In this document: in pieces, positions 22,655 to 52,900 of the stretch
Layout of the letters: each line of letters begins with the position of its first letter
Position numbering within the stretch: the stretch's first letter is position 1
Virus record (IMG/VR): IMGVR_UViG_3300045988_042242
Span: 1 to 58,857 of that record
Strand: one strand, 5' to 3'
DNA from: a virus
DNA length: 58,857 nucleotides
Notes under the pieces: model-generated
Told to the model about the DNA's origin: nothing
The model's database searches: none
The model's input: only the letters and a program-made list of their open reading frames with translations
Made by a program: the position numbers and the translations under genes

Positions 22655-22666
22655 ATTGCGTTGAAT

Positions 22667-28982: not shown

Positions 28983-29279
28983 TTAGTTTAACGACCATGT
29001 CGTGCGCACATCGCAATGGTCAATTTCGTTATGCTTCACTGCTTCGCCGTTCTTGATAAGCGTCTTCAAAAATTCTTTATCTACATAAATGCCTGACTTG
29101 CCACCCCATGAATTTGTGCCAGTAAACAAAACACTTTGTGATGTCAATTCGGCGTTTTCGATGTGTATCGACATTGATGAACCATTCCATGTGTCGTAAG
29201 TGCTTAATCTTCGGCCTACAGTCTTTCTGATTACCCTTTCGATGTCGATTTCTTTGATTATTTTCTTTGATGTCATCAT
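28983..29279 (-). CDS. Hypothetical protein (98 aa), first gene of the early operon
   Basis: ORF preceded by a variant leader (plus strand catattacgttga at 29277..29289). Confidence 0.5.
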   Translation of the reverse strand: MMTSKKIIKEIDIERVIRKTVGRRLSTYDTWNGSSMSIHIENAELTSQSVLFTGTNSWGGKSGIYVDKEFLKTLIKNGEAVKHNEIDHCDVRTTWSLN

Positions 29280-29318
29280 ATTACGTTGATTTTTATTGCG
29301 TGTTAGACACTAATTTTA

Positions 29319-31113: not shown

Positions 31114-32257
31114 ATTCATCATCCTCAAACAAGTTCGGTATTCGTTCAACCGCTGCTTTCTTGTTCTTGTCTAATATCTTCGCATACACTTGTGTCGTTT
31201 CAATGCTCTTGTGTCCTAACAACTTCGATACTGTGTAAAGGTCAACGCCCAAGTCGAGCATCATAACTGCGAATGTATGTCGCGCACAGTGAAACGTGAT
31301 GTGCTTGTTGATACCGGCACTTTTCACCCATGCCGCGATGCTGATGCGTACCGCCTGTATTGGACCAAGTTTCGGGAAGACGCGGTCTTCAGGGTTGCCA
31401 CGTTCACCAAGCATCGAAGCTGCTTGCGTGTTCAGGTCAAGATATTCAAGTCCGCCGGTCTTCTTCTGCGTGAACACGATGCGCGTGCCTGTGTGCCATT
31501 CTTGCACTTCACTCCACTTCAGTTTCACAATGTCGCTCCAGCGCAACCCGGTCAGGCAAGAAAAGAAAAACGCTTGTGCAAGGTCTTCATTCGGTGGCGG
31601 TGTCTTGCGTAGTTTCTTGATTTCTTCAATCGTCAGAAATTCGCGGTCAGACTCAGGTTCTTTGAAGCGTTCAACACCGGCGGTCGGGTTGAAACGTATG
31701 ATACCCTCGCGCATCGCGATATTGAAGACGCTGCAAAACTTCTGAAACATAAGTGCCTTTGTTCCCTGCGATATTGGCTTTGGCTCAACATCGCGCTTTC
31801 GTGTGTCAATCGCCCACTGCATCGCTTCTGTGTCAAGATAGTCACGGAAGCCACGCACCCACTGCGGCGTGATTTCACCGAACGTGATGCGTTCGTTCGG
31901 TTCATACTTCAGAATGTGTGCAAGGCAGTTCTGCCAACTTGTCTTTGTCGTGCCGTCCTTGCGGTCTATAATCTTGCGCATGACCTCAATAAACATCGCG
32001 TCTTCGTGCGTCTGTACGTCAATGCCAAAGTCTTTTGACTGAATTTCGACCACGCGCTTTGCACGCATCGCTTCAGCAAGTTTCAGCGTTTCTTTGTTCT
32101 TCTGCTTGTCTTCGCGTGTCTTTTCCGGCACAAGATACATTTTCAGATATTCATTCGTGCGCTTGCCGTCACGACAAATATCAAGATACAGCGCAATCGT
32201 ACCGTTTCTGCGCGGTCGCTTGCGTAGATAGACGATTTCTTTTTTTTTCTGTGTCAT
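31112..32257 (-). CDS. int: Tyrosine recombinase / phage integrase (Bacteroidota type)
   Basis: Start refined to MTQKKKEIVYLRKR... at 32257, with the leader catattgcggtga. The catalytic region includes HCARHTFAVMM and LLGHKSIETTQVYAKI. An N-terminal SAM-like arm-binding domain is present. Confidence 0.9.
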   Translation of the reverse strand: MTQKKKEIVYLRKRPRRNGTIALYLDICRDGKRTNEYLKMYLVPEKTREDKQKNKETLKLAEAMRAKRVVEIQSKDFGIDVQTHEDAMFIEVMRKIIDRKDGTTKTSWQNCLAHILKYEPNERITFGEITPQWVRGFRDYLDTEAMQWAIDTRKRDVEPKPISQGTKALMFQKFCSVFNIAMREGIIRFNPTAGVERFKEPESDREFLTIEEIKKLRKTPPPNEDLAQAFFFSCLTGLRWSDIVKLKWSEVQEWHTGTRIVFTQKKTGGLEYLDLNTQAASMLGERGNPEDRVFPKLGPIQAVRISIAAWVKSAGINKHITFHCARHTFAVMMLDLGVDLYTVSKLLGHKSIETTQVYAKILDKNKKAAVERIPNLFEDDE

Positions 32258-32664
32258 ATTGCGGTGAATTTTGTTGCGCATGATGCGCGATTTTGACCGC
32301 GCAACAAAAACGCACCGCAAAGATAGCATATATTTAGCACATTTGCGCACACTTTTGGAAAATAAAGAAACCGCAACATAAATGTTTCAGTCTGTGATAC
32401 TGTGCATTTATGTTGCGGTCGTATGTCGTGTGAGTGCGTTACCTGAAAACTTCGTCTTTCGCCTTAAAATTCACTGGTAAAATGCTATATTCTTCATTTA
32501 TTTTGTTGATATTCTGCAATTTGTGCCGCTGTTCAAGTTGCTTGCGCAACAAAAACGCACCATTTTATGCAAAAATACCGTCCGAAGTGCCGTAAAGGCC
32601 ACCCCGGACGGCTTCAACGCAATGATGACTGAAATAATCATCATCTGTGCAAAGGTAGTCATTT
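32258..32664. other. Non-coding attP-candidate region
   Basis: 407-bp gap next to int. It has an 18-bp direct repeat gcgcaacaaaaacgcacc (32299..32316 and 32544..32561), a 14-bp inverted repeat ccgcaacataaatg / catttatgttgcgg (about 32372..32419), and a minus-strand -7 box TATCTTTG (plus-strand caaagata at 32319..32326). Confidence 0.45.
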
Positions 32665-35281: not shown

Positions 35282-38200
35282 TTAGAATTTCCAACGGCTG
35301 ACACTCCACGCTTCAACTCTTTTGCCATTAAGATTGAAGACTGTGAATGTGAATTTTGCTTCTTGACCTTCATATACGTCATAATAATTATTTTCTGTAA
35401 TATCATCAAAAATTTTCTGACCTGACTTCGGATAAAAACGCATCGCGCCTTGTCCTATCTGTTTCGCAAAAATCACTTTACCCTCATAGCCGTCTGTTGG
35501 CAGATACACCGTGCCTGTTTTGTCTTTGTTCGTCAGGCCGACAGCCTGTGTGTCTGTTGTTCCTAAATTGACGGCAGTTGTCGCGGCACTGTCTGTTATG
35601 TATTTCTGCTTCAAGATAAGACCGGCTGCGCACAAGTCCATGAAATAACCACCGTATGCAGGAGCGTTTCCTGAATTGTCAGCACGACCATACACTCCTG
35701 CGACAAGTGTCGTTTCTTTTTCAAACTCCCATTCGTAGCTGACATTATCGCCGAAGCCAAGACCAACTATTGAGCCATAATGTGTGTAACCACTTGAAGA
35801 CGGCATTGCATTTGTCTTTGGATTATTGCAAAAGATGCCGCTTGCAGACAGATATGCAACGCCATTGTCATTGCGCGTTTCAACGACACCTCTTTGTGCA
35901 TCAATATCAATGACCGACGACTTGCTGATGTCAAGTGAATAGTCACCACCTGTGTTTGTTGACACCAACTTTATGTGTCCTGTCTTGCCGTCAAGCAAAA
36001 GCGCATATTGATTACCGCTCATCATCGTTGAGCGAATACGTTCATCAGAGAAGTAGAAGCCAGCAATCAATGCTTCACCAAGAACTTTCAGTGCTTCTTT
36101 GATTTTTGCATTGTTCAGAATGAGAGTTTCTTTTTCTTCATTGTTAAAGTCAAGCGAACTGCCTAACTTGAAAGAATTTTCAATCAAGTCAAGAAAACTG
36201 TTGCCGTCAGACGAAACAATTCTTTCAGTTGTGATGCGTCCAGGCAAGATTTCAGTGAAGCCGTGCATCGCGACAAAACTGCGTTCTCCGTCAATTTCAG
36301 CGTTCAGCAAGCCGACAAGGAAGTGATAATGATTTGCCACTTCATCGAGTTTAATTGATGTCTGCGACAGTACAAATACACCCTTTGAATTGGTGTCTTT
36401 CGGACACTTTGCATACAGATAGTATTTTGCAGAAGTATCAGTCAACACTGGTGAAGTGTAACTTTCCATGCTCCATGTCAGATAGCCTTGCGCATCGTTG
36501 CGGTCTTTCGTTGTGATAGCGTTATGCCCGATTGTCAAGTGCTGAAGATATATCGCCAAGCCGCCTGATGTCATTGTGCTAATAAGTTGCTTCTTTTCGT
36601 TATCCCAACTGACAGGCGTTGCACGGCGCAACCAATTATCGCCTGACTTGCTGACAAATTGGAACTGAAGACTTTCGTCACCAATCAGCAAAGACATTGC
36701 TTGCACTGCGATAGGTGATATTGCATTGGTAAACATATCGAGTTGCGCATCTTCAAGCATTTCGATAGTTTCCTTTGCATCGCGAAAGCGGCGTTTCGTG
36801 AACTGCAAGATGTCGCGCTTCGTGTCATCAATCACAACTTCAGTGTTCGTGATTTGCCGTATCTGCGAAGACACAGAAGAACCGCCAGACACGCTGTTTG
36901 ACAGTTCGATTGTCGGTGAATACGGCGATGTCAGAAAGTCTTTGATGCCGACAATGCGAATGACAACACCGTATTTTGCAAACTGCTCGTCTTGAAACAG
37001 AACGTGACCGCCGACAACGAGTTTGCCGCCGACTTCAAGCCAATGCCGTTTTGCCCACAGTGATTGCAGACTGCCGGTGAACGTGAAGCGTTGGTCTTCA
37101 CACTCATAAAGTGCCTTGACTGCTGCACGCATCATGTCCCATGAGCCGCCCGACTTGTTCGTGTTGTTGCAGATGTATTCATCAGGTAACTGTATGCCGA
37201 AGATTGCATACGTCTGTTCTTTGACAGGACACCACGTTTTATCAGGCATTATCACGCCGTCAATTTCTTGCGGCACGATTTCAAACTTTCGCTGTTCGTG
37301 CTTATAATGCACATCAAATTCCTTCCCGGCAAGCATACCGTCTTGGAAGATGATTGTCATCGTTTCCCCTGCAATCAGATAGTTATTGTAGTTCAGATTG
37401 TCGGGAATAGTGCTGTCAATGATGTTGTAGAAGTTCTTTGCTTCGTTTTCAACTTCGACAGCCGTCACTTCGCCGACATGTGACGGATAGATTTCACTGC
37501 AATCAATGCTGTCTTCTTTGACTGCATCAGAAACCTTGTCGATGCGTTCTACACCGTCACCGTCTGCGTTGCTCTTGTATGTGCGTGCAATCGCGCTGTT
37601 AAAGCCGTCTTCGTCTTCAAAATGGGTGCCGTCATAGCGTATCGTCTGCGACTTCGGCAATAGAAGTTCAGGCGAACCGTACTTTTCACGGTCGATGTTT
37701 CGGTCACTTCCCTGCACAAGCATACGTTTCACAGGCACGCCGTCTGCTTCAGACGTGCGCCCGACACCGGGAATGAAACCGTTGCCGACACCGTAAGACA
37801 GTGCGACAGGTTCTGTCTTGAAGTATTCCACGCGGCGAAGATGTATCTTTGCGCGTGTCGTGCCGATGTATTCGACTTCGTATTCAGTCTGAAACACATT
37901 GCAGATGTCAGTAAGACCGGCATCTATGAATGTGTGATTAAATTCGACTGTCTTTTCTGATGCTTCGATACATTCGCCACGTTCCCAAGTGACAGAAGTG
38001 TCCTTTTTGTTCAAGTTGCGAACAATCAGGTCTATAAATTCGTGTGGCTTCGCACACAGCGAGAACTTCAGACGGTTGTCTTTCGGTGCGCCCTCTTTCA
38101 GTGGGTCAACCACGTTTCTGATTTTCCACACACCGAAAAAGTCTTCATTTGTGCCGAGCGTCATTGTGTATTCAATCTTGCGTGTGCCTTGCTTCTTCAA

Positions 38201-38488
38201 GTCCTGCGCACGTGTCAAGATGAAACGCTGATTTTGGAAGATGCACGATGTGCCGACAGGAAATTCAAAGTAAAACGGCAGATTGAACTTCAGCACAAGT
38301 TGCGGCTTCTGCATCAGTGCGCGGTATCTGTAACTGCTATCTTCCGGCTGAACTTGAATATCGACACGCCACACAGTGCCGACACCAGGCTGATACACGC
38401 TTTGCTGCGTGACGTTTTCACGCCACTGTTCAGCAATCGCGGTACTGATGTCGAGTTTCGTTTTGGAATAGTACGTCAGTGTTATCAT
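35282..38488 (-). CDS. Large tail tip / Tal-like protein (1,068 aa)
   Basis: Size and position in the tail module fit. The N-terminal MITLTYYSK...QNQRFILTR region resembles siphovirus tail-associated (prophage tail endopeptidase-type) N-domains from memory. Confidence 0.5.
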   Translation of the reverse strand: MITLTYYSKTKLDISTAIAEQWRENVTQQSVYQPGVGTVWRVDIQVQPEDSSYRYRALMQKPQLVLKFNLPFYFEFPVGTSCIFQNQRFILTRAQDLKKQGTRKIEYTMTLGTNEDFFGVWKIRNVVDPLKEGAPKDNRLKFSLCAKPHEFIDLIVRNLNKKDTSVTWERGECIEASEKTVEFNHTFIDAGLTDICNVFQTEYEVEYIGTTRAKIHLRRVEYFKTEPVALSYGVGNGFIPGVGRTSEADGVPVKRMLVQGSDRNIDREKYGSPELLLPKSQTIRYDGTHFEDEDGFNSAIARTYKSNADGDGVERIDKVSDAVKEDSIDCSEIYPSHVGEVTAVEVENEAKNFYNIIDSTIPDNLNYNNYLIAGETMTIIFQDGMLAGKEFDVHYKHEQRKFEIVPQEIDGVIMPDKTWCPVKEQTYAIFGIQLPDEYICNNTNKSGGSWDMMRAAVKALYECEDQRFTFTGSLQSLWAKRHWLEVGGKLVVGGHVLFQDEQFAKYGVVIRIVGIKDFLTSPYSPTIELSNSVSGGSSVSSQIRQITNTEVVIDDTKRDILQFTKRRFRDAKETIEMLEDAQLDMFTNAISPIAVQAMSLLIGDESLQFQFVSKSGDNWLRRATPVSWDNEKKQLISTMTSGGLAIYLQHLTIGHNAITTKDRNDAQGYLTWSMESYTSPVLTDTSAKYYLYAKCPKDTNSKGVFVLSQTSIKLDEVANHYHFLVGLLNAEIDGERSFVAMHGFTEILPGRITTERIVSSDGNSFLDLIENSFKLGSSLDFNNEEKETLILNNAKIKEALKVLGEALIAGFYFSDERIRSTMMSGNQYALLLDGKTGHIKLVSTNTGGDYSLDISKSSVIDIDAQRGVVETRNDNGVAYLSASGIFCNNPKTNAMPSSSGYTHYGSIVGLGFGDNVSYEWEFEKETTLVAGVYGRADNSGNAPAYGGYFMDLCAAGLILKQKYITDSAATTAVNLGTTDTQAVGLTNKDKTGTVYLPTDGYEGKVIFAKQIGQGAMRFYPKSGQKIFDDITENNYYDVYEGQEAKFTFTVFNLNGKRVEAWSVSRWKF

Positions 38489-38991
38489 CAGTCTTCAGTT
38501 TCAAAGATTGAATAATCAAGGTCTTTCTTCTTCCACCCATCGTTGAGTGTTTCGATGACAAATGCCGTGGCTTTCGTTACAAAGTCTGCAAGCGGTTCAA
38601 ACTTCGTGAACGTGTGATATATCGGGTTCGCATCAGCATCTTCACCGAGTTTGAACTTGACAGGCAGTGTCGCTCCGTTCGTATCTCGTGCGAAGTCGTA
38701 TGCTGCTTTGAAGTTCTGCTGATTTTCGGTTGACAGATAGACCGGCTTGCCGTTCCAAGTGAAGCCTGTCAGTATCTTCGCGTCTGTTTCAGCGTTAATC
38801 AGGTCGCTGATGTCTTGCTTGATTTCGCGCACCGTAGGCTTGTGGTCGTAGTATTTGCGCCATGTGTATTTGTTGCCGTCTGCATCGGTTTCAAGACCGA
38901 AGATAAGCAAGTAGTTCGATGATGACAGACACACAAGTTTGTCTGCGCGTTCTGTTGCGCCATTGCATCGGAAAAATTCTGTTTTTGCCAT
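38488..38991 (-). CDS. DUF4376-like tail-fibre-associated protein (tentative)
   Basis: 167 aa. The pattern ILTGFTWNGKPVYLSTENQQNFKAAYDFA is recalled from DUF4376. It lies downstream of the RT. Confidence 0.4.
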   Translation of the reverse strand: MAKTEFFRCNGATERADKLVCLSSSNYLLIFGLETDADGNKYTWRKYYDHKPTVREIKQDISDLINAETDAKILTGFTWNGKPVYLSTENQQNFKAAYDFARDTNGATLPVKFKLGEDADANPIYHTFTKFEPLADFVTKATAFVIETLNDGWKKKDLDYSIFETED

Positions 38992-39021: not shown

Positions 39022-40383
39022 TTAATCATCGAAGTAGTAGCGTGTGCCACCACCGCCTTGAAACGGTTCACTTCGTATTGTTACAGCGATTGAAGTCGTG
39101 TCGAGTGTTCCGCGCATAGCATCAAGCATCGTCTTCATTTCATCGCTGTTTGTGAAGAACTTCGACATTTGACCTGTATTCAACTTTCTGAACGAAACAA
39201 GATAACGACCGTCACCTTGCTTTGTCTTCACATCACGTTCAAAGTCTATCAGTTCAATCGGTACGTTTACGATTGAACTGATGCGCACACACTCGCCGTT
39301 GAAGCGTTTCTTTCCGTCTTTAGGCGTATATGTCAGATTTAAATCACTGAATTTAATCATTTCTTGTTTTGTTAAAATTTTCTTTAATAGATGTTTGCAG
39401 TCTGCGTGTTTCGCCATGCCGTACAGTGAGCCGACAATTTCAACCCTGCGCTTTCTGCTTTTCACTTTCGCGAGTTTACGACAGAAGTTCTTCTTGACAC
39501 GCTTGCGCAAAAGCGTATGTGTCGTGAATATCTGATAACCGAGAAAGTCAAGACCTGTTTCGATAGGGAAAACACGCTCATTCTTCTTGATTGTCTGACC
39601 GATGCTTTCGATATGTTCATGCACTTCGTCACGCACAAGCCACAGAAAGCGTTTGTCTGATGCGCCCACGACAATATCGTCCATGTAGCGATAGAAGTGC
39701 CGCACACCGTATCTGTCTTTCATAAAGTGGTCAAGATGAACCGACAGAAGAAGATTGACAAGACCTTGTGAAGACCGCATACCCATACTCATGCGCTCGC
39801 CGTCCGGCATCGTTGCAAGAAAGTCGGCAAGTATCGCGATAAGTCGCTTGTCTTTGAATACACGGTTGAGCGCGTACAACACAAATTCATGCTTCACTGT
39901 GTCGTAGCACTTCTTTATGTCACATTTATACCAATACAGTATTGATGTGTCTTGCATCATGTCACGTCTGATGTACTGCATCAGGTCGTGCATTCCGCGC
40001 TTTTTGATTGATGCTGAAGTAGTGCGTATATAACGAGGGCGAAGATGCTTGTCAACAGGTCGCATTACAGCATTGATTTTGATGCGTGCTGCCATGCAAT
40101 ACACCTGAAGAAGACGTTTCTTCCCTGCTTCACAGATTTCTTTTTCGTGATAGCCACCGGTGCGCAATTCTTCTTCGGTCGGTGCGCGATGTACAGGCAT
40201 CAGTGAAATTTTCCCTGACACGATTTCTTCGCGCACTGACTTCAGAAATTCTTCGCGATGTTCAAGAAGCCATTTACCTTCAGGCAAACTTTTTCGGAGC
40301 GTTCCTCTGACTACATCGTCAAACGACTCTTCAAGATTTGTCTGTTCAATGATTTCTTCTATTATGTAACCGTCACGTTTCAT
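39022..40383 (-). CDS. DGR-type reverse transcriptase
   Basis: 453 aa. RT motifs YKCDIKKCYDTV (3), MGMRSSQGLVNLLL (4, with the DGR-typical SQ), YRYMDDIVV (5, YxDD) and LDFLGYQIF (7). It is adjacent to the TR/VR pair. Confidence 0.9.
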   Translation of the reverse strand: MKRDGYIIEEIIEQTNLEESFDDVVRGTLRKSLPEGKWLLEHREEFLKSVREEIVSGKISLMPVHRAPTEEELRTGGYHEKEICEAGKKRLLQVYCMAARIKINAVMRPVDKHLRPRYIRTTSASIKKRGMHDLMQYIRRDMMQDTSILYWYKCDIKKCYDTVKHEFVLYALNRVFKDKRLIAILADFLATMPDGERMSMGMRSSQGLVNLLLSVHLDHFMKDRYGVRHFYRYMDDIVVGASDKRFLWLVRDEVHEHIESIGQTIKKNERVFPIETGLDFLGYQIFTTHTLLRKRVKKNFCRKLAKVKSRKRRVEIVGSLYGMAKHADCKHLLKKILTKQEMIKFSDLNLTYTPKDGKKRFNGECVRISSIVNVPIELIDFERDVKTKQGDGRYLVSFRKLNTGQMSKFFTNSDEMKTMLDAMRGTLDTTSIAVTIRSEPFQGGGGTRYYFDD

Positions 40384-40600
40384 GTGCTGTTGTTATATAT
40401 GCCTTCAGTTCTCCGGGTCTATGATGTTCGAGAATTAACCTACCAATCACTACCCAACCAACAACGTAATTTTTCAGTTTTCCACGACTGATGTGTCATG
40501 CTGTTACTGAGGCTCGGTTTCCTCGTTCACGGCTATGCGCCAGCGCGTGACGCTATGCCGGAGGAACGATTGATAATTGTTGTTGTATTCTGTTCTGTTT

Positions 40601-40714
40601 GCGAGCCGAGAGCCGTTATTCGTATTCGAGTTCGAGGATGCGTTGTTCGCGTTCGCATAGACGAGACCGCCATTCGCGTTGGCGTTGTTATTCGAGCGAC
40701 CAACGACACGGCAC
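40601..40714 (-). repeat. DGR template repeat (TR)
   Basis: The coding-strand reading CRVVGRSNNNANANGGLVYANANNASSNSNTNNGSRLA contains 12 AAY codons. It is 114 bp and matches VR1 and VR2 except almost exclusively at adenines. Weak homology extends to 40594. Confidence 0.9.
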
Positions 40715-40794
40715 GTTGGAAACCTCTACCTTTTTATTTCGTTCATTCAATTTCAAGTTTTCATTTCTGTCTTCATTTTGATTGATTTGAAAAA

Positions 40795-40842
40795 CGTGCG
40801 CGGTCGCTGACCGCAACGGGGGCGCGTCTTGCGCCGCGCACG
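40795..40842 (-). terminator. GC-rich hairpin downstream of VR1 (intrinsic terminator and/or DGR target-recognition structure)
   Basis: Perfect 9-bp outer stem cgtgcgcgg / ccgcgcacg with alternative inner GC hairpins. On the minus strand it is followed by TTTTT. Confidence 0.55.
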
Positions 40843-40851
40843 CTTTCCGTG

Positions 40852-43800
40852 TTATTCGCTGACTTCGATTTCACCTCTGAAGGCGAGCCGAGAGCCGTCA
40901 TTCGTACCCGAGCTCGAGGATGCGTCGCCCGCGCTCGCATCGACGAGACCGCCACCCGCGTAGGCGTTGCTAACCGAGCGACCAACGACACGGCACCTGC
41001 TGCCACTGTACCACTGACCGTCACAGTAATTTGATGCAAATACGCTGCTGTCTGATGTACACTTCGATGCGATTACGTCACAGAAGCGACCGTGACGCAC
41101 ACGACCGATGCACACACCACTGTTTGTTACGCCCTGCACGACACGTTCTGTCTTGCTGATAGGGTCATAGATGTGCCACTTCGCATCAATCGGGTCAGTA
41201 TTGATTTCTACACCGTGATTTTCGAGATACGACTTGAACGACAATACATTCACTGCGACATTATCCATGACTTCCCAAGTACAGCCGACAAAGTTTTCAA
41301 TGCCGAGTATCTTGTTTCCGTTCGATGCTGTTGTGCGCTTCGTGTCTGCATTGCCGACTGCATCTTGACTGCCTGTTGTGCCGCCTGAACTACGTCCGTA
41401 ACCGCATATCAACTGAACATCACGATTGCCGTTCAAACTCATCCACAGAATTGCCATGAGTTTGCTCATTTCGTAGTCGATAAGTTGATAACCGTCACCA
41501 CGGCGCATTGCGAGGTTCTGCAAGTCCTTGTATGTGTAGTTCAGCGCACCAACAGGCGTGTTCTTCACACGTCCGTTTTCATCATACTGCCATTCAGTAG
41601 AAGTCTTTGATGTTCCTGTACCAACACGGACAGTTGCAGCACTTATACTTCGTAATTGCATCAGTGTGTCAACAGATGCGTGATATACACCGACAAGCCA
41701 CGGTTTGTTTTCTACCCAATCAGGCTCAATCGCTTCGATTTCTGCACTATCAACTGCGATGACTTCCTGTGAGTTGTTCGTTCCCTTTGACGAAAAGAAG
41801 AACGATACAGCACCGTCAGGCACATTGCAGAATACATAATCTTCACCTTCAAGGAAGTCAAACATCGTATTCGACACTGCAAGATTGAATGTACCTACAA
41901 TTTTGCCGGAAGCATCAGTGAAGACTGCGCCGATGACACTGTGATTAAGCCCCGGCCAGCGCACTTGCTTCATGCCTGACACGTTCAGATGATAGATGTT
42001 GTAGTTCGGTGTGTCTGCGATTATGCCGTCAGTTTCAAGCGTAGATGTGCCGATGACAACATCAGTAGTCTGCACGGTTTTGTTGGCTTCGTACAGCACT
42101 TCAGACAGTTTCTTGCGTGTGATATTGCGTGCCGTGCTGATAGGTTCAGTAGTGAGCGAAGACCAAAAAATGTATTTCTTCTGCGCCTTGAAGTCATTCA
42201 CGCCCTTATACCAAAGATGCGGACAGCGCATCATTACATCGAAGCCTGTACCAAGTTCGTCCTTGTAGTCAAAGACAGTTCCGTCAGGCATCTGTTGATA
42301 ATTCGCATCGCTGATGCGTTCACCTACCCATTTGCCGTTGCTGTTCGTTCTACCCTTGACAGGTATCAGACCTTTGCGTATGCGTAGAATGTGACCGCTT
42401 GCTTCGTATGCGTCACCGTTCGTATTGTTGTCAAGATTGGTGATGTTCTTCGGGTCATTCACCGTATCATCGAAGACAACGCCTGTAAACTGCGCATTGT
42501 GAACTGTCAGACCGATGTCAGACGGCTTGAAGTACGCTTGCAGTTGTGCAAGTTCGCTGTCATCAATCAGCTTCGTCAATATCCATGAGCCTGTGATACC
42601 GTCACAACCGTGGTCTGCGTCACTGCCGATACCCTTTGTGCCGTCAGCCATAAGACGCTTCAGAATTGTCGCGTCTGCATTGACTTCAAGACCTGAAATG
42701 CCGATGTCTGTCAGATGCGCATTGCCGTTTATGACAGCCTGAAGCATTGCGAAAGCATCAATGCCGGCGCACGCTTCAATCTGGAGACGCTTCACATTGC
42801 TGAAACCGGCTATTGTAAGACCGCCGTTTGGATATGTCAGTTTAGGCAGATTTTGAAATGTCAGAGAAGTCATCGTGTTAGGCAGTTGTAGTGTTTCAAT
42901 CGGTGATGTCTGTGCCGGTGTGAATGACTGTAACTGACTGCCGAGCGCACGCACCGTCTTCAGACGCGGGCAATAAGTCGCGTCCAAAGTCTTCAACGGG
43001 AAGTTCCTGATGTCAACTTCTTCAAGGAACGGCAACTGACCGAGTGCAAGCGTAGCAAGTTCATCGCCCGAAGACGTTGCAGGGGTGTATGCTTCGCCGC
43101 CGATGATAAGTTTCTTCAGAAGTGTCAGATTGCTGATGTCCCAACCTTGCTGTTTTGGCGTTGCGTTTCTGATGTCAAGTTCTTCGATGCGGTCTGCGCC
43201 GAAGATGTAAATCATAACACCACCGCCGAGGTTCGTGTTGTTCGTGTAGAACGTATGACTTTCTCCGGCATTCAGGAAGCAAGAACCGCCGTTTGCTTCG
43301 TTGGCACGGTCAACGCCGACACCGAAGTAACCTGCTTTTGCTGCTTTGATTGTGATGCTCATGTTCGTGCCGGTGCATCGCATCGAGATTGCGCTCGAAT
43401 ATGTGTCACCGCACTTATAGAAGCCGTCACGGAACAAGAAGCGTTTCTTGACATATTCGCGAAGTCGCTGAATTGACAGACCGTGAAGCGCGAAGAAGTA
43501 GTTTGCCGATGCCTTGCTGTTTTCGATATACTTGCGATTGCCGTCATACGATGACACAAGTTTCGGCCACTTCTGCAAGCGGTCTGTTACCCAATACTTT
43601 TCAATGCCCTGCGGCGAGAATGGGCGCAAACCTGATGCAAGCTGCTGTGAGCGCATCAATGCTGCGATACGTGCGACAGTAGTTGTGCGTGTCGCGTCTT
43701 CTGTGTCGATTTCTGCGCGATAAGGCTGAAGCCAGATGTGTTCTGCCTTTGCGAGCTGCACGAAAAGCACGCTGTCATGCCCCTGATAGTAACCGTTAGG

Positions 43801-46800
43801 GTCATTGTTCGGGTCAAGTTCTGCCGGGATAGTAAGACCACAGTCATTGTCACTGCCGAGAATGGTATCGCCGTCATACAGATGATTAAGATACATTCTG
43901 ACATTGCCGTCAGTTTCGATATAGAAACCGACCATCATGTTCTTGCTTCGTTGGTCAACTGCTGCGATGTAGTCAGTGAAGACATGATACATGATTGCGC
44001 TGTATGGGTTCGCTTCCTTGTGAAGTTCGTGCGCAAACTTCTTCAGACGATTTTCGGGTGTTCCTGGTACACTCTTGCCGTCAATCGTAATGTTTCCGTC
44101 CGCTGCTGTCTTGTGCTGATTACACTCGTTGCACCAACACAGCCACTTATATAGACGATACGGCAACTTTCGACCGTCTTCATAGGCGGTGTTCAAGTCA
44201 TCGTTGTCGGGATAGCGACTTTCAAACTGCTGAAGCCATACAAGTTCACCGTCTTCAGAACGGCGCAACATATCATCAATGCTTGACACGTTCTGAAACC
44301 AATCCATGTCATTGTATGCTTTCAGTTCGTAGCACTCGACAGGGTTCACAACATCGCCGGTGATGCGCCAGCGACCGCCTGTGTATGTCATCGTGCCTGT
44401 TGTTTCTGTCCATGCGCCACTTTGATAGCGGTACACTTTGTGATTTGGGCCGCAAAATTCAGACAGAACAACGATGTCTTCAGTGTTCCATTCTGACTTG
44501 TCAACAGATGCCGCAAAATCATCGAGCGTCTGATTTCTTGCTGCGATGTATTCTGTAAAATCACCGTAGTTCAGACAGTCTTTGTTGTAACCGTCAACGG
44601 CTTCAAAGCCAAATACTGCTGCATCGCCTTTGTCGTGATTGAAGTTTCCCTTTGCATGGAAATATCCGTAAGAAGGTGAAGTCGGGTCTGGCGAATTTGC
44701 GTCAGTGCGATATAGTGCCATAGGAATGGAACTGATGCAAGGGTTCAGTTCATATTCGCCGGTGTAGAAGTTCTGCGCCGGTGTCATGTATGCCGAACCA
44801 AGTGCGCGTGACAGTTCGTTGTACAACTGCGTAGATGCACCGTTATTCGCGCCGCCACTTTCTGAATAGTCAACTTTGATACAGAAGATGTTTGTCGGCA
44901 TAGTGCCGCGCACGATTTGGAACTTGTTATTTGCCGCGAGTGATGCGATGAAGTCGTATTCTGCGAGTTGCTGCGCGTCAGTGAACTGACTGCGGTCGTA
45001 CATCATACGAATGAGCTTTGCTTTCTTCGACTTGCCTTTCTTGTTCTTGATAGGTCTGCGCGAAGATGTCGTACCCTGATTTGTAGTCGGAATGTCTTCG
45101 ATGACAAAGTTTCTCCAAGGACTATCAGGGAAGTAGAAGTACCAACACAGAACAACAGGTGTCTTCTTGTCACCGTCAAGACCTTCAATGTATTCAGGAT
45201 AATTTTCAGGCGTGTCTTCAGTGTTCGGTGACTTGCACATAACGGCATACGCGATGTTTCTTTCACCGAGTGATGCCATTTGCGGAATGTTTCGTGCCGG
45301 TCTGCCCTCTGCCGTCTGTGATGCCATTACCTGATTGAAGTTGTATTCAACAATCATCGCATCGGTGTCAGCGAGTTTCAGCAAGTAGTTGTTGAACGAT
45401 TGTTCAAAGTTGTAGTACGTTTCCCATGCACGCATATTGTACAGATACAGGTCTGCTTCAGAACCGTCAAACGTGATAGGCGTTGCGTGACGTGACAGTG
45501 AACCTGCGTCATAGAAACAAGCACCTGAAAATTCGCCGTCAAGATACAATGCGACAGTTCCGATGCCGGCATACGGTGCCTGGCTTGTAGGCATGATGAC
45601 GATTGCAACGTCTGTGATTGCGTCTTCTTCAAGTGCCGCGTCAATCGTGTGTGCGACTGTTTCTTCATTGTCAGTCGTGAAGACAACACGTTTGCCGGTA
45701 ACAAAGAAGCCGAAACCATTGCTGATGCAACTGATAAGACGTGCGTTTTCGTCCGCGATGTGGCGCGTGCGCACGCGGAACTGAATAGCAAGACCGTTCG
45801 TTTCGATTGAAGACACGTTGAAAGGAGCATAATCAAGCGTTGCTTTCACGTTCTCTGCGATACGCAAAGCCATGATGCCTGTATCGTTAGGCTGTTCGTA
45901 CACGTCACTGCCGTAACTGTCTTTGACAAAGCCGTTGGTCGTGTAGTTCGAGCCGATGACGGTCATCGTATAGCCGTTGCTTGTGATAGACTTGTCTGTG
46001 TCCTTGTTGCTTCGGCTGCTGAAGTCAATATCAATCATCTGCTGCGCTGTCACGCTTTCGATGTTCAGAAGTGTGCCGACAATCTTGAAGTTCGCTGTTT
46101 CAGATACAGATGTGCCGACACGCGCGAACAAGCCTATTGTCACACTGCCGTCAATCGCGTGACCTTGCACGCGCTGAATGTACGCTGAAGTCACACCACG
46201 TCTGACAAGCGATGTACGCTTGATAGTTGTCTGTGTGCCTACCTTTTCAAAGATTTCGACAGACACTTCAGAAGACTGCGAAGAATACGCTGCGAAGTCG
46301 ATGCTGATTGTTTCGTACTGCTTGACTTCACCGTCTTGCTTTTCGCTGTACCAACGTGTCACGACAATAGGTGTTGTGTTCGCCGGGTCAACGACCATGA
46401 CTGCCGTATGAAGATAGTTTCCGACAACGCCTGAAGACACGTCTTCGCCATGTATGCGAAGCGGATATGCGCCATGCTGAAGCGCAACACCGCAACAGTT
46501 CTTCGGGTCTATTGTGATACTGTGCGCGTAGGTGTCGCTCACGGTTGCTGTGCCGAGCGTTTTCCACTGACCGTTGATTAAGATTTCAGTGATGCAAGTG
46601 ATGCCTTTGTCAGATGCGTTGTTCGCGAAACGATACATCGGAAGCTGCTTCACTGCACCGCCGACATTGATGACAGTTGATGCCGTGTAATTCAGCGTCT
46701 GTTCTGATGTGATAGTCACATCTACTGCTGTCACGTTGATGTTACGCTTCGCTGTGCGGTCGCTGTCATCATACGCAACGAAACGGAACTTGCGCTGACC

Positions 46801-48399
46801 GGCTATGCTGAAGTATCGCGACAGGTCAAATTCAAAGTCGAATGTTTCCTTGTCTGCCGATGTCGCTTTGTTCAGTCTGAATGTTTCGAGCAACTGTTCC
46901 GTGTCGCGGTCATACAGTTCTACTTTTTCGATAATGCCGCTTTCATAGTCTGCACCGTTCTTCAGCGTGATTGCAGCGTTCACGATTAGCGTACCGCCTG
47001 ACTGACCGTAAAGCGGTGATGTTTCGGGCGTAAATTCAAGTATCATTCCTGTCTGGCCGCCACCGCCTGTGCCGACTGCAAACTGCTTTTCGTCACCTAC
47101 TGCTGCACCGGCTGCGTTTACAAGTTGCATCTTCACGACACCTTCTGTTTCAGTGTCGATATTGATGTTTGCAGGAATGTGCGTGAAAGCACCGCCTGTG
47201 CTGAAAGCGTCTTTGCCGTCTTCTTCGGGGTCATCTTTTGTTTCAACAGTAGAACCGCCGCCACCGTTGCCGAAGTCTTTCCACAGACCGGCTTCACCGA
47301 AATTGCCGACAGAAGACGTGAACTGCTTGGCTTCCCAAGTGTTTTCGCCTGTCTGATAACTGATGACAAGACCGCTCTTGCGATAGTCTATGCCTGTTGC
47401 ATTTGACTTTGCGACAAGTGCGTTGATTGCATATTCGAGCGTGTAGTATGCTGCTGCCGTACACGGACCACAAAGCGCATCTATGATGATGAATGTTTCG
47501 TCACCTGCTGACATTCCTGCATTGTCGAGCCAGTTGCCTGGGTTCTTGAAGTTAGCTTCACTGCTATCTGCGCCAATGTATTGATACGTCTTCCAAGACT
47601 TGTCTGCGATAGCGAATGTTATCTGCATACCGACATTGCGGAAGCCTTTGTCATAAGCAACCGCAATCGCTGCTTCAAGGTCGTAGTAACCCATTGACAG
47701 CGGCACATCGTTCGTCACGTTGAAACAGTTTCCGACTGCTGCTGAACCTCCGAACTTGCGCCAATACGATGTTTTGATGAATGGGTCATACTGCGGTGGC
47801 ACCATTCCGTTACTCATATAGAACGTGTATTGCCACGACTCCCAACCTTGTTCGCCTGGGAATGTCACGACAAGTCCTGCTTTCTTGAACAAAGCACTGT
47901 CTTTGTGCGATGAAAGCGCACCTATGACTGTTGCAAGTGTTGTGCTTTGCGTCAAAGACAGCATTTCTTTCGCGTTGATAAACAGACGCGGCGCGATGAT
48001 GTTGTCAAGTTCAGTTCTGTTTGTTTCAACTGCTGCCTTCGCTTCACCGGCTGTATTTTCTGCTTCTGATGCCGTTTCTCTTGCAGTATCGGCATTTCTG
48101 TTTGCCTGTTCTGCAACGCTGTTCGCTGTTTCTGCTTTACTGATTGCAGAATTTGCAGTCGTTGTTGCTTCGGTAGCCGCTTGCTGCGCCGATGATGCAA
48201 GTGTCTTCGCTTCACCGGCTGTTTTGTTGGCTGCTTGCGAGGTCTTCAGCGCGTCTTGTGTCGGCTGTATAAGACCGTTTAGCAAGTCACCGATTGGAAT
48301 TTTTACGCCCTCATTCTGCGCATTGACACCGAGCGTGTAAAGTCCGGCGGTCGATGTCGAGGTAGGTAATTCCGTTATTCTTTTTCTGAGGTCTGCCAT
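40852..48399 (-). CDS. Giant tail fibre / receptor-binding protein (2,515 aa) with the DGR variable region at its C-terminus
   Basis: Ala/Thr-rich N-terminal coiled coil, a LamG-like segment, a leucine-rich-repeat block (about 42700..43200), and a C-terminal ...CRVVGRSVSNAYAGGGLVDASAGDASSSSGTNDGSRLAF encoded by VR1. Confidence 0.85.
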   Translation of the reverse strand: MADLRKRITELPTSTSTAGLYTLGVNAQNEGVKIPIGDLLNGLIQPTQDALKTSQAANKTAGEAKTLASSAQQAATEATTTANSAISKAETANSVAEQANRNADTARETASEAENTAGEAKAAVETNRTELDNIIAPRLFINAKEMLSLTQSTTLATVIGALSSHKDSALFKKAGLVVTFPGEQGWESWQYTFYMSNGMVPPQYDPFIKTSYWRKFGGSAAVGNCFNVTNDVPLSMGYYDLEAAIAVAYDKGFRNVGMQITFAIADKSWKTYQYIGADSSEANFKNPGNWLDNAGMSAGDETFIIIDALCGPCTAAAYYTLEYAINALVAKSNATGIDYRKSGLVISYQTGENTWEAKQFTSSVGNFGEAGLWKDFGNGGGGSTVETKDDPEEDGKDAFSTGGAFTHIPANINIDTETEGVVKMQLVNAAGAAVGDEKQFAVGTGGGGQTGMILEFTPETSPLYGQSGGTLIVNAAITLKNGADYESGIIEKVELYDRDTEQLLETFRLNKATSADKETFDFEFDLSRYFSIAGQRKFRFVAYDDSDRTAKRNINVTAVDVTITSEQTLNYTASTVINVGGAVKQLPMYRFANNASDKGITCITEILINGQWKTLGTATVSDTYAHSITIDPKNCCGVALQHGAYPLRIHGEDVSSGVVGNYLHTAVMVVDPANTTPIVVTRWYSEKQDGEVKQYETISIDFAAYSSQSSEVSVEIFEKVGTQTTIKRTSLVRRGVTSAYIQRVQGHAIDGSVTIGLFARVGTSVSETANFKIVGTLLNIESVTAQQMIDIDFSSRSNKDTDKSITSNGYTMTVIGSNYTTNGFVKDSYGSDVYEQPNDTGIMALRIAENVKATLDYAPFNVSSIETNGLAIQFRVRTRHIADENARLISCISNGFGFFVTGKRVVFTTDNEETVAHTIDAALEEDAITDVAIVIMPTSQAPYAGIGTVALYLDGEFSGACFYDAGSLSRHATPITFDGSEADLYLYNMRAWETYYNFEQSFNNYLLKLADTDAMIVEYNFNQVMASQTAEGRPARNIPQMASLGERNIAYAVMCKSPNTEDTPENYPEYIEGLDGDKKTPVVLCWYFYFPDSPWRNFVIEDIPTTNQGTTSSRRPIKNKKGKSKKAKLIRMMYDRSQFTDAQQLAEYDFIASLAANNKFQIVRGTMPTNIFCIKVDYSESGGANNGASTQLYNELSRALGSAYMTPAQNFYTGEYELNPCISSIPMALYRTDANSPDPTSPSYGYFHAKGNFNHDKGDAAVFGFEAVDGYNKDCLNYGDFTEYIAARNQTLDDFAASVDKSEWNTEDIVVLSEFCGPNHKVYRYQSGAWTETTGTMTYTGGRWRITGDVVNPVECYELKAYNDMDWFQNVSSIDDMLRRSEDGELVWLQQFESRYPDNDDLNTAYEDGRKLPYRLYKWLCWCNECNQHKTAADGNITIDGKSVPGTPENRLKKFAHELHKEANPYSAIMYHVFTDYIAAVDQRSKNMMVGFYIETDGNVRMYLNHLYDGDTILGSDNDCGLTIPAELDPNNDPNGYYQGHDSVLFVQLAKAEHIWLQPYRAEIDTEDATRTTTVARIAALMRSQQLASGLRPFSPQGIEKYWVTDRLQKWPKLVSSYDGNRKYIENSKASANYFFALHGLSIQRLREYVKKRFLFRDGFYKCGDTYSSAISMRCTGTNMSITIKAAKAGYFGVGVDRANEANGGSCFLNAGESHTFYTNNTNLGGGVMIYIFGADRIEELDIRNATPKQQGWDISNLTLLKKLIIGGEAYTPATSSGDELATLALGQLPFLEEVDIRNFPLKTLDATYCPRLKTVRALGSQLQSFTPAQTSPIETLQLPNTMTSLTFQNLPKLTYPNGGLTIAGFSNVKRLQIEACAGIDAFAMLQAVINGNAHLTDIGISGLEVNADATILKRLMADGTKGIGSDADHGCDGITGSWILTKLIDDSELAQLQAYFKPSDIGLTVHNAQFTGVVFDDTVNDPKNITNLDNNTNGDAYEASGHILRIRKGLIPVKGRTNSNGKWVGERISDANYQQMPDGTVFDYKDELGTGFDVMMRCPHLWYKGVNDFKAQKKYIFWSSLTTEPISTARNITRKKLSEVLYEANKTVQTTDVVIGTSTLETDGIIADTPNYNIYHLNVSGMKQVRWPGLNHSVIGAVFTDASGKIVGTFNLAVSNTMFDFLEGEDYVFCNVPDGAVSFFFSSKGTNNSQEVIAVDSAEIEAIEPDWVENKPWLVGVYHASVDTLMQLRSISAATVRVGTGTSKTSTEWQYDENGRVKNTPVGALNYTYKDLQNLAMRRGDGYQLIDYEMSKLMAILWMSLNGNRDVQLICGYGRSSGGTTGSQDAVGNADTKRTTASNGNKILGIENFVGCTWEVMDNVAVNVLSFKSYLENHGVEINTDPIDAKWHIYDPISKTERVVQGVTNSGVCIGRVRHGRFCDVIASKCTSDSSVFASNYCDGQWYSGSRCRVVGRSVSNAYAGGGLVDASAGDASSSSGTNDGSRLAFRGEIEVSE
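40883..40996 (-). repeat. DGR variable repeat 1 (VR1)
   Basis: 114-bp alignment to the TR shows 15 differences. Fourteen are at TR adenines, all in AAY codons. The shared 3' GC-rich element GGCTCTCGGCTCGC is followed by CTTCA, which both VRs carry where the TR has AAACA. Confidence 0.9.
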
Positions 48400-49432: not shown

Positions 49433-49911
49433 ATCACAATAGCATGGTCTTTGATTGTTTCATTCGACTTTGAATGTTTGTCTTTCTCTATATGCACGAC
49501 ACTGAAACCTGATGCTTCAACCTGTGCCGATGCACCATGAAGCACACAGACAAGATTTCGCTTCGTCTGACTGTATTTCAATATCGCGTGCGTATTGCCG
49601 ACCAATAACACACGGTGTTCTTCTTCAAGTGTGATGTTCCCTGCGTCAATATACAAGCCATATTTCTGCGTGTCGTACTTCTTGAACTGTCTGAAGATTG
49701 AAAGCGTAGGGAAGTCGAAACTTGTGATAAATTCAACTCCACGCGGCGAAAACAGAAGCGCAATGAGTTCTTCAAGCGTTTCATCGCCGTGAAACATCGT
49801 GCAAGCGTGTAATTTCTGCGCAACGTCTTCACGTCCGGCTCTGATGCACAACTGCGCTGCGCGTGCCTTTGCTTTTCGCCATTCTGTGCGTATCGGTGTA
49901 AGATTTTCCAT
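49429..49911 (-). CDS. Hypothetical tail-module protein (160 aa)
   Basis: The ORF starts 12 nt after the tape-measure stop and is preceded by the conserved leader (plus strand catattgcggtga at 49909..49921). Confidence 0.5.
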   Translation of the reverse strand: MENLTPIRTEWRKAKARAAQLCIRAGREDVAQKLHACTMFHGDETLEELIALLFSPRGVEFITSFDFPTLSIFRQFKKYDTQKYGLYIDAGNITLEEEHRVLLVGNTHAILKYSQTKRNLVCVLHGASAQVEASGFSVVHIEKDKHSKSNETIKDHAIVI

Positions 49912-49923
49912 ATTGCGGTGATA

Positions 49924-52900
49924 TTATTTCAGTTTAATGCCCTTTGTCGTAATGTCTTCGACTGCATCTTTCACACGTTTGACTTCATATTTCATTTCGT
50001 CAAGCGTTTCGGCAGTCTTCTCCGTATTGCTGTCTATGTTCGCCAACTTGTCAAGTATCTGATTGCCGGTTGCGTTCAGTTCTGCAACACCCTGCACAAT
50101 CGTATATGTATGCGACTGTATAGTTGTCAGACGTGCGTTGTTTTCGTCAACACTGTCTTGCGATGCGGTTGCGATGCCTCGTTCTGATGCCTGTCGTTCT
50201 TCGTCACCAAGAAACCATTCTTTAAGTTCATCAGGAAGTTCGTCCATGATTGCTTTGAACGATGAACCGACTGCGTTCAAGTCGTTGCTGAACTCATTCA
50301 TTGAACCTATAACGCTGTCAATACCTTTGAAGCGTCCGTCAGTTCCGAACCAACGCTGCTTGTACTTGTCAAAGATTTGACCGATAGGTTCTTCAAGCAA
50401 TTTCTGTATCATCATTCTGCGCAAGATGTCAGACACAATTTCATTGACTTTGTCGCGCCATGCTTCCATTGCGTCTTCACCTGACTTCACTGCTTCAAAG
50501 AAAGCGTCACCGAGCTGCTTTGCGATGTCTTCGGCAGATGCGCCGATGATGTCTTCAAGCATATCGTTGATGAGCGTTGCCATTTCTTCGGCAAGTTCAG
50601 CAAGTTTGTTCTTGTAGTCTTGAACTTTGCCGCTGTCAGTCTTCTTCTTGCTTTCTTCTGCGTTCAACTGCTTCTGCACAAGCAACTGTTGTTCTGCAAG
50701 GTTTTCAAGTTGCTTTCTGCTTTCGTCATAACGCTTTGAACCAAGTGCCTTGTCTGCTGTGTACGATGCTTTCGCCCAATAATCAGCAATCTTCTCAACC
50801 GTCTTTGCATAGATTTCTGACTGATATACACAACCTGCAATCCACTTCTGCCAAGCGGTTGCGTTCTGCATAACGCCATGAAGTTTCAGAACCTCTTGTC
50901 GTGCTTCTGAATATAGTTTTTTAACTTGTTCAAGAGCGTTTCCGACATTCTTCTGAAGACGCACCGCGTCTTGGTTATCAAGTTCCCATTGAAGTTGGTC
51001 GATACGTTCCTGAAGACGTTCAATCTCTTTTTGTTTTTGTTCATCGTTGTTGAAAAGGTTAGCAATAGCGGTTGCAATCTGTAACGCTGCGCTGATTACA
51101 GTCAGAATGATAGATGCTTTTTCGACAGTGCTGATTGATGTCGCTGTTGCCTGTGCCGTTGACTCTGTTGCCTGACCCATTGCATCAACTGTTTCAGTCA
51201 TGCCGGTAGCGACAGACTTGCCAACGTCACCGATTGCAGAAATAACGTCTGTCGTTGCGTCAAGCACTTCATCAATACAGTCGAGTGCTTTATCCATGCC
51301 GTCTGCGATGTCATCGCTGAAGACACGCGCGAGGTTACTTGCTTTTTTGCCTACATCAGTAGCGACTTTTCCGGCAGAATTGAGGTTTGTCGCGAATGTC
51401 TTGTATGACTTCGTGACTTTGTTTCGTGCTGTCAACGTGCGCTGTTCTGCTTTAGAGTTCTTTTCCTGGGCGTTCGCAAGTGTAGTTGTCGTTCTTGCAA
51501 GATGTTCATTTGCATTGCTTAATTCAACACAGTCTTCTGCAAGTTCACCATTGTCTATGCGTTCAAGAACTGCGTTTTTTGCTTCAATTGCATCGCGATA
51601 GTCTCTTTCCGCTGAAGTCAAGTCACGTTGCGCTTTTGCAAGTTCGCCGAGCGCATTTACAAGTTCTGTCTTTGCGTCACTGATGTCTGTGAAAGACTTG
51701 TGCATCGCCGTGAATGGGTTTCGCGATGCAATTTCATCTTCCATTTTATCAATGGCTTCTTGAAAAATCTTGATTTGTTCAACAGACATATTCTTGCCCT
51801 CTTGATTGAAGTACGTGCGGACCTTGTCAAGTGTAAACTGAAGCGACTGCAACGACTGTTCACCGAGGTTGCCGAACACAACGTCCCAGTTGATTGTCTT
51901 CTGAAAGTCTTCTGTTTTCAGATTTGAAAAATCTTCTTCCATTTTCTTCAACGCTTCAGGCAAGAAGTCAGGAAACGCCTGACCGATAAAGCTGATTTTC
52001 TTCTGCCATTCAATCGAAAGTTGGTCAAACTTCTGATTGTATGTGCCGAAGTCGTTGACAAGTTGCTTGAAGTATTTTTCGCGAATGTCTGCCAAACCTT
52101 TCTGAAGCGCGTTGTCAATATCCAACAGACCCTGCGAATAGTTGTCTGAAATTTTCGGGTCTTTCAGCAACTCGTTCGCCCAATCTGTAAGACTGCGCTT
52201 TCCTTGTTCAGAAGCGTTCCAACTTTCTTCAGTAGCACCTTTCTGTGCCAGGTAGTATGCTTTTGTTGTGTCGCGCAATGTTTCTGCAAGTTGCATCAAC
52301 TGCTGCTGCCAAGCCGTCTTTCTGTCATTCATCTGCTTGTACATAGCATTGCGCTCTTTATAATATCCGTCTTCCATGCTGTCAATCGCTGCTTGCGATA
52401 TGGCTGCATTGGTACTTCTTACATATTGCGTGACTGCTTTCTGATATTCGTCAAGTGCTTTCTTCTGTTCTGTTGCCGCTTTCTTCGGGTCAAAAGATGA
52501 ACCACTGCCGCTGCTGCCTGAAACTTTCTTTGATTTTGGGTCTATGTGAACAACATCGAAGTGATTTTGCTTCTGATATGCTTCGAGGTCAGCACGCTGC
52601 GCGTCCATTGCTTCTTTCCAATAGTCTGCTTCTTTTTGTGCTTCGGCTTTCATGTTTGCACGGCGTTCTTCATTGCTGTCACCGAACCAACGTGCAGGGT
52701 TATACCAACCACGGTCAAATTCGCCGTTTTCTGCTTTGTGAGCGATTTCAAGTGCTTCGACATACGCTTCAACATATTTGTTCAGCAAACCTTGCTGTAC
52801 TGCTTTCATTCGTAGCATTTTACAGTATGCCGGACCACGTTCTTCAAGAACACGTTCCCACTGTTCAAGACTGTCATAATAACCGAGTGCTTCCCCATAC

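Follow-up and report, generated by a model that had tools for sequence, protein, structure and literature searches.

A Hankyphage-type diversity-generating retroelement with two target genes in a temperate Bacteroides phage

The IMG/VR record IMGVR_UViG_3300045988_042242 was analysed over its whole length (positions 1-58,857), which is called the window in the following. It contains a diversity-generating retroelement (DGR), the parts of which all lie on the minus strand. These are a reverse transcriptase (RT) gene at 39022-40383, a template repeat (TR) at 40601-40713, and two variable repeats (VR), one of which (VR1, 40883-40995) belongs to a giant open reading frame (ORF) at 40852-48399 and the other (VR2, 23653-23765) to a remote 214-aa ORF at 23580-24224, designated p214. 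An earlier note, made from the sequence alone, had called a DGR on the basis of TR, VR1 and RT, and all of these elements were found to be present at their positions. We are highly confident that the locus is a functional, Hankyphage-type DGR with two targets, carried by a temperate, siphovirus-like Bacteroides phage.

Repeats, reverse transcriptase and spacer RNA

The order on the minus strand is giant ORF with VR1, TR and RT. The TR is located 282 nt downstream of VR1 and 217 nt upstream of the RT start, on the same strand as the latter. The copy common to TR, VR1 and VR2 comprises 113 nt; of the 114 nt given in the earlier note, the extra G is shared by TR and VR1 only. A repeat search recovered the third copy at 23648-23765. 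This copy, previously listed for alignment only, is a real second target: VR2 lies 17 kb from the TR, in frame near the C-terminus of p214. The TR is non-coding and contains 27 adenines. Translated in the VR frame it reads CRVVGRSNNNANANGGLVYANANNASSNSNTNNGSRL, with the 12 AAY codons that had been noticed before, and 26 of the 27 adenines occupy codon position 1 or 2. Each VR is read in frame with its ORF and lies at the C-terminal end. VR1 encodes aa 2469-2505 of the giant target and is followed by the stop after 10 codons, VR2 by a stop after 23 codons, and the two targets are alike over the VR-encoded 40 residues only.

An ungapped comparison of TR and VR1 yielded differences at 15 of 113 positions, 14 of which are adenines in the TR (Fisher p=9.6e-10). 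At these adenines there are 12 A>G and 2 A>T changes; the lone change at another base is a T>G that turns TAT into GAT. This reproduces the earlier count exactly. VR2 has 13 mismatches to the TR, 11 of them at adenines (p=1.3e-6).

The RT (453 aa) has an intact ORF with matches to Pfam RVT_1 (aa 86-285) and phrog_1423. The catalytic YMDD and the SQ motif, both reported previously, were confirmed, the latter within MGMRSSQ. Over its full length the protein shares ~51% of its residues with the Hankyphage (Bacteroides phage p00) RT, and its best match in the PDB is the DGR RT of BPP-1 (8ub7, 328 aa, E=1.4e-14). Other RT classes reached 7e-7 or weaker in this search, with group II intron and retron RTs at ~1e-6, a gap of ~8 orders of magnitude. 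Judged by the PDB match and the identity to Hankyphage, the grouping of the enzyme with DGR RTs is supported.

The RT exceeds that of BPP-1 by 125 aa and ends in a module of ~110 aa that is absent from the BPP-1 enzyme. This C-terminal extension (39022-39360, minus strand; approximately aa 342-453) matches phrog_19665 at aa 342-452 and is conserved in the RTs of Hankyphage and of Bacteroides phage BS-TP4 (PQ571277); a profile of it matches 248 cluster representatives. The idea that the module is a separate accessory protein was rejected, as both of the "stand-alone" copies that were checked proved to be gene-calling artefacts. One of them (L026) is the result of a contig truncation. In the other (L023, a relative of the window on a Logan contig of SRR19497825, at ~4000), codon 10 of the RT carries a nonsense change, GAA>TAA, which is either a natural inactivation of the RT or an assembly error and accounts for the spurious call of a 111-aa "stand-alone" protein. 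The VR of the giant target in this contig is still diversified. A further peculiarity of the window RT is a 14-aa insertion (LMPVHRAPTEEELR) at aa 61-74 (40160-40201, minus strand), in the N-terminal region, relative to the RTs of Hankyphage and BS-TP4.

Between TR and RT lies a structured RNA that belongs to the Rfam family RT-3 (RF03068; 40414-40571, minus strand). It matches the full model (1-148) with 95.8 bits against a gathering threshold of 40.5, starts 29 nt past the TR and ends 30 nt ahead of the RT start codon. It is the sole Rfam match in the whole window. RT-3 was also found at the matching position in Hankyphage (146.6 bits), in five relatives of the window and in BS-TP4 (74.5 bits), whereas RT loci of distant relationship lack it. 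When seven RT-3 copies were folded together by RNAalifold, 37 pairs were obtained, 16 of which have compensatory double changes. RT-1 to RT-19 have been published as orphan motifs found in the neighbourhood of RT genes. A DGR was assigned to RT-10 alone, which forms the spacer between TR and RT in BPP-1, and the authors speculated that further RT motifs might serve further DGRs (Weinberg et al. 2017, PMC5737381). No paper that links RT-3 to DGRs was found in the literature that could be searched. From its position and by analogy, we infer that RT-3 serves as spacer RNA in the clade of Hankyphage-type DGRs, and it may have a priming role equivalent to that of the BPP-1 spacer RNA. An orphan Rfam motif would hereby gain a concrete context, slightly beyond what has been published. 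The earlier note mentioned neither this RNA nor the absence of an Avd gene that is discussed below.

The 3' junctions of TR and VR1 share a 14-nt GC-rich element, GGCTCTCGGCTCGC, which is followed by AAACA in the TR (40596-40614, minus strand) and by CTTCA in VR1 (40878-40896, minus strand). The element occurs exactly three times in the window, compared with 0.17 occurrences expected by chance. In every copy examined within the window's clade it has the form GGCTCTCGGCT[C/T]GC and continues with CTT in VRs and with AAA in TRs. BS-TP4 has the same layout with sequences of its own: after ...CGTCTG, its VR continues with GCCTTC and its TR with AAATTC. By analogy with the initiation of mutagenic homing (IMH) site of BPP-1 and its TR counterpart IMH*, which the two junctions resemble, the 14-nt element would mark the 3' limit of the rewritten segment. 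A strong GC-rich hairpin with a T-run lies just past the stop of the giant gene (40791-40846, minus strand); it is the intrinsic terminator of this gene and stands between the target and the TR.

Adenine-specific copying and activity

Each VR was also paired with its own TR in six related genomes. Substitutions were found at 135 of 270 TR-adenine sites and at 6 of 860 other sites (p=3e-89), with a spectrum of 75 A>G, 50 A>T, 10 A>C, 4 T>G, 1 T>C and 1 C>T. The mismatches are thus enriched at adenines in VR1 by itself as well as in the pooled count, which bears out the expectation of the earlier note. The four T>G changes among the six at non-adenines concern TR positions 54, 89, 95 and 102, and three of these thymines adjoin TR adenines. 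They may reflect a second, less frequent kind of RT error or ordinary mutation, and the numbers are small.

The close relatives present in IMG/VR are 87-97% identical to the window over the whole locus. In two of them (L002 and L003) the TR is 100% identical to that of the window, with the genomes themselves being 91-94% identical, and the set of VR substitutions differs genome by genome. Where a lineage has acquired non-adenine changes in its TR, the same changes are present in the cognate VRs in 40 of 40 cases (13/13, 13/13, 12/12, 1/1 and 1/1). Because the cognate VRs carry these lineage-specific changes, the covariation is, at the level of sequence comparison, the signature of repeated copying from the TR into both VRs. 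The transfer of information appears to be one-directional, with TRs invariant and VRs variable.

These data also bear on the possibility that the three repeats arose by ordinary duplication or paralogy and have drifted apart through point mutation or gene conversion, and that the RT next to them is unrelated, being for example of the retron, group II intron or defence type. Such an origin would not account for the adenine-restricted substitutions or for the one-directional flow, and we regard it as extremely improbable. The only support for it comes from the NCBIfam scan of the RT, in which no DGR-specific model matched and weak matches were obtained to the group II model TIGR04416, to Drt3a and to a retron model. 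All of these are far below threshold, and in the PDB search the DGR RT is well ahead of every other class. Group II intron identity was rejected with 60 bits against a cutoff of 300, and retron identity with 28.6 bits against 235; in addition, Rfam at gathering thresholds detected neither a group II intron nor a retron RNA in the window, only RT-3. With respect to the RT class, the assignment of the earlier note is therefore upheld by the profile and structure-database searches.

Homologues of the targets also bear on whether the DGR is active. p214 has 1749 homologues in public data. For the 60 closest of these, mean column entropy amounts to 0.155 bits outside the VR; within it, the 14 adenine-templated codons reach 2.50 bits and the remaining codons 0.02 bits. 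Homologues of the C-terminus of the giant protein have the same pattern of variability. One p214 cluster, P0001, which contains 143 member sequences, differs from the window copy at 10 residues, all of which are encoded by adenine-templated codons, and there are 0 differences at the other 199 positions. A scaffold that is identical and a VR that is rewritten suggest very recent activity in near-identical genomes. The between-genome comparison and the population data thus speak for the "active or recently active" element that had been proposed: the DGR is active in this lineage and very probably has been so recently, and activity of the window genome itself would follow by comparison.

An alternative is that the locus is a DGR by descent which is now inactive in the window genome and whose VR differences are leftovers of earlier rounds of copying. 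The nonsense codon in L023 would mean that inactivation does occur in the lineage, and a canonical Avd gene is absent; furthermore, activity of the window genome is deduced from comparison rather than from reads. However, the RT ORF is intact and includes the catalytic YMDD, TR, RT-3 RNA and both VR junctions are intact as well, and P0001 combines the scaffold of the window p214 with a rewritten VR. The Avd-less cassette of Hankyphage is experimentally active (PMC12135933). We therefore consider a silenced element quite unlikely and adhere to the interpretation as a functional DGR. With its two targets, the TR/VR covariation across strains and the hypervariability in populations, the locus is an unusually clean and internally controlled DGR and should make a good model.

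Target proteins and genome setting

The giant target consists of 2515 aa and matches phrog_14959 from end to end. Its gene is located directly downstream of those for the tape measure and a tail protein. An AlphaFold2 model of the C-terminal 420 aa (predicted local distance difference test, pLDDT, 91.7; predicted template modelling score, pTM, 0.82) was compared with known structures by Foldseek, which returned TaqVP (5vf4, E=3e-6), Mtd (1yu1, E=0.014) and formylglycine-generating enzyme (FGE; E=0.15). According to this model, the VR1 domain is predicted to have a DGR-type C-type-lectin fold. The best neighbours in BFVD are labelled tail fibre or tail-collar fibre and come from gut and crAss-like phages; these labels are automated. 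The N-terminus of the protein has weak matches to tail-fibre PHROGs. PDB sequence searches with both targets found nothing. The earlier description of a receptor-binding fibre tip is borne out as far as the 2515-aa ORF with its C-terminal VR is concerned; the fibre and receptor functions are read from gene position, predicted fold and automated neighbour labels, which make a tail fibre or tip protein a reasonable reading. Diversification of VR1 is then probably related to host range or adhesion.

It is nevertheless possible, if somewhat unlikely, that the giant target is not a host-receptor-binding fibre and instead acts as a virion-surface adhesin, for example towards mucus glycans, or as a multi-domain protein that bears enzymatic activity. 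The Hankyphage homologue has been called a protein of unknown function for which mucus adherence was suggested (Benler et al., PMC6199706), whereas a 2025 study calls it a tail fibre (PMC12135933). Multi-domain DGR targets of >2000 aa with CotH-kinase, carbohydrate-binding module (CBM) and leucine-rich repeat (LRR) motifs have been described in Bacteroides prophages (Macadangdang et al., 10.1101/2024.11.15.621889). In the window protein, a CotH-kinase domain as in the published "domain group 3" targets was undetected by Pfam even at E<=1, and no Pfam domain that would mark the protein as a fibre was found either. A separate downstream ORF of 1068 aa (35282-38488) could be the actual fibre. Against this, the giant gene comes immediately behind those for the tape measure and the tail protein, and the structural neighbours as well as the N-terminal PHROG matches point to a tail fibre. 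We thus retain the tail fibre or tip protein as the working assignment.

The second target, p214, is an acidic protein that belongs to phrog_11581. Its gene is situated between SbcC-like, RecT-like and metallo-hydrolase genes on one side and DUF6291 and DnaC-like replication genes on the other. VR2 is thus found in an early recombination/replication module and not in the tail module. The context of the p214 homologue in phage Versailles is the same as in the window, and its label "tail protein" there is the result of HHpred/PHROG transfer. In the LoVEphage-like phage BI-TP1, the homologue lies among methyltransferase, HNH and radical-SAM genes, and across at least three phage lineages p214 stays in a recombination/replication or anti-defence module. 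A second VR distant from the RT cassette and near counter-defence genes has been described in four Bacteroidota prophage species (PMC12629997, Nature 2025). The p214 model comprises an N-terminal SH3-like barrel and helices. A fold call was rejected, as only a generic SH3/Tudor-like barrel with a weak N-terminal match was obtained and there was no hit at E<=0.001. p214 is a conserved, hypervariable small protein of the early module with >1,700 public homologues, which goes slightly beyond what has been published. If it were intracellular, programmed hypermutation would vary an intracellular binder, aimed for instance at host defences or at factors of the host, besides the adsorption apparatus.

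The first and last 55 nt of the window are identical (1-55 = 58803-58857), as found by repeat search; the window is therefore either circular as assembled or terminally redundant, and its unit length is 58,802 bp. Its genes include those for a major head protein, a tape measure, an endolysin, a tyrosine integrase, a large terminase and a portal. The phage is interpreted as a temperate Bacteroides phage of siphovirus-like type, its genome unit being ~58.8 kb. One of the p214 homologues (P0005) comes from Bacteroides xylanisolvens. No near-identical deposited genome was found when window positions 1-25000 and the cassette region were queried against the annotated phage collection. Among deposited sequences, the giant protein is most closely matched by its homologues in the Bacteroides phages BS-TP4 and BKO1-TP3, with 36% identity.

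Several other features of the window were noted in passing. Directly downstream of the VR2 target gene, within the DUF6291 ORF, a repeat of ~47 nt (CAACCAAAACAACCATTTGCTTG...) occurs four times at 23118-23312; these repeats resemble iterons and may mark a replication origin. A conserved motif of ~35 nt, which contains ...CATATTGCG[T/G]TGA... on the plus strand, is found at 20060-20097, 22636-22673, 29261-29298, 32239-32276 and 49909-49940; it covers the ATG of several genes on the minus strand and looks like a recurring promoter or 5' leader of phage operons. At 5738-8647 (minus strand), a 969-aa minor head or head-morphogenesis protein carries a Bxa-like ADP-ribosyltransferase domain as a fusion. 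An ADP-ribosylglycohydrolase gene lies nearby on the opposite strand (4504-5280, plus strand), and the two may constitute an ejected toxin with its antidote. Finally, 288 nt of the window (1241-1528) are 89% identical to a porcine GenBank record named "Microvirus sp." (MT135339.1). Such a match is odd for a tailed-phage genome, and the record may be mislabelled or chimeric.

Proposed mechanism and comparison with known DGRs

A number of observations weigh against the interpretation as a functional two-target DGR. The published signature of DGR RTs is [I/V/L]GxxxSQ, and the first residue of this motif in the window RT is Met instead of Ile, Val or Leu, which is a conservative departure. Six of the 141 pooled substitutions are at non-adenines, four of them being T>G. 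The VR domain of p214 could not be modelled (pLDDT <50 at aa 152-187). The evidence for activity is comparative and applies at the level of the lineage rather than to this particular genome. No hairpin was found downstream of VR2, where the region folds no better than shuffles (z=+0.92). Since VR2 is without an equivalent hairpin, a downstream hairpin is not a common recognition element of the two targets, and a shared hairpin for BPP-1-like target recognition was rejected: VR1 has only the terminator of its gene and VR2 nothing comparable. Lastly, searches of the flanking ORFs with Pfam, PHROG and NCBIfam did not detect a canonical Avd or HRDC gene beside the cassette, and a listing of small ORFs gave no suitable candidate for Avd in the intergenic gaps.

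Avd is common yet not universal among DGRs, and its absence does not exclude membership. A conserved ORF of 167 aa lies downstream of the RT (38488-38991, minus strand). It is 43% identical to a Hankyphage ORF that is noted as "Avd" in one GenBank record and 40% identical to a "DUF4376 domain-containing protein" of BS-TP4. As a canonical Avd it was rejected, because it is acidic (pI 5.0), matches DUF4376 only weakly and matches none of the Avd families of Pfam. The Hankyphage ORF noted as "Avd" is thus not Avd-like, which goes slightly beyond published knowledge, and this widespread clade of gut-phage DGRs would work without Avd. One could imagine that the RT-3 RNA together with the C-terminal module of the RT (~110 aa) takes the place of Avd and, at the same time, that p214 is an early intracellular protein. 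This combined proposal is put forward tentatively, and we hold it to be rather doubtful.

The DGR could operate as follows. A transcript that starts past the terminator of the giant gene would carry the TR, an A-rich linker, the RT-3 RNA and the RT mRNA. The RT-3 RNA, by analogy with the spacer RNA of BPP-1, would bring in the RT and supply the priming site or hold it in position, and the RT would then reverse-transcribe the TR and misincorporate opposite adenines. The resulting cDNA would replace the homologous 113-nt segment in the two target genes, with the 3' limit of the replacement at the 14-nt GC-rich element, and the difference between CTTCA in the VR and AAACA in the TR would keep the TR in the role of donor only. 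In this process the 12 AAY codons, one TAT and one ACG could be rewritten without creating stop codons. The expected outcome would be a diversified ligand-binding surface on a C-type-lectin fold at the C-terminus of the 2515-aa tail-module protein, and a diversified C-terminal patch on the small early-region protein p214.

The closest known system is that of Hankyphage (BK010646), the cassette of which has been annotated as a DGR (Benler et al. 2018, PMC6199706) and diversifies its VR in culture without Avd (PMC12135933). Like the window, it has a giant target with a C-terminal VR, a TR, an RT-3 RNA, an extended RT and a DUF4376-like ORF in the same order. The TRs share ~80% nucleotide identity in part, the VR ends in ...GSRLAF in both phages, and the design of the TR/VR 3' junctions is alike. 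On the other hand, Hankyphage has a genome of 43 kb with a Mu-like transposase, compared with 58.8 kb and a tyrosine integrase in the window, the giant proteins are only ~26% identical, and Hankyphage contains a small ORF between VR and TR that is missing in the window. Its RT lacks the 14-aa insertion and has IGLRSSQ in place of the motif with Met. The second, remote VR is a property of the window: p214 homologues were not found in the p00 records by tblastn, and the related phage BT-TP2 has a partial one. The window phage does not belong to Hankyvirus, as there is no nucleotide match to p00 past the TR/RT region and the DGR cassette alone is homologous.

BS-TP4 and BKO1-TP3 (PQ571269) represent different species-level genomes. 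Their giant target aligns with that of the window over ~90% of its length, the RTs are 40-42% identical, and RT-3 RNA, an adenine-specific TR/VR relationship and the same junction layout are present. BS-TP4 carries a RelE toxin and XRE regulator pair as an insertion that separates its DGR target gene from the TR (L022, 7953-8613), which shows that the gap between VR and TR tolerates cargo.

The BPP-1 DGR (Mtd, Avd, TR, spacer RNA and bRT) shares with the window the design for adenine-specific mutagenic retrohoming, an AAY-rich TR and a VR that encodes the C-terminus of a tail protein of C-type-lectin fold (PMC7826257), where the tail assignment and the fold are predictions in the case of the window. 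Both have a GC-rich 3' element at the point where VR and TR diverge (IMH and IMH* in BPP-1) and a structured RNA between TR and RT, which is RT-10 in BPP-1 and RT-3 in the window (PMC5737381). In contrast to BPP-1, the window has no Avd, a longer RT with the additional C-terminal module, a spacer RNA of another family, two targets instead of one, and nothing like a hairpin after VR2. Cassettes of the Hankyphage type, giant targets and second VRs at a distance have all been published previously. The novelty of the locus is thus modest and lies in the DGR context of RT-3, in the combination of a conserved RT extension with the lack of a canonical Avd, and in a second target that is part of an early module.

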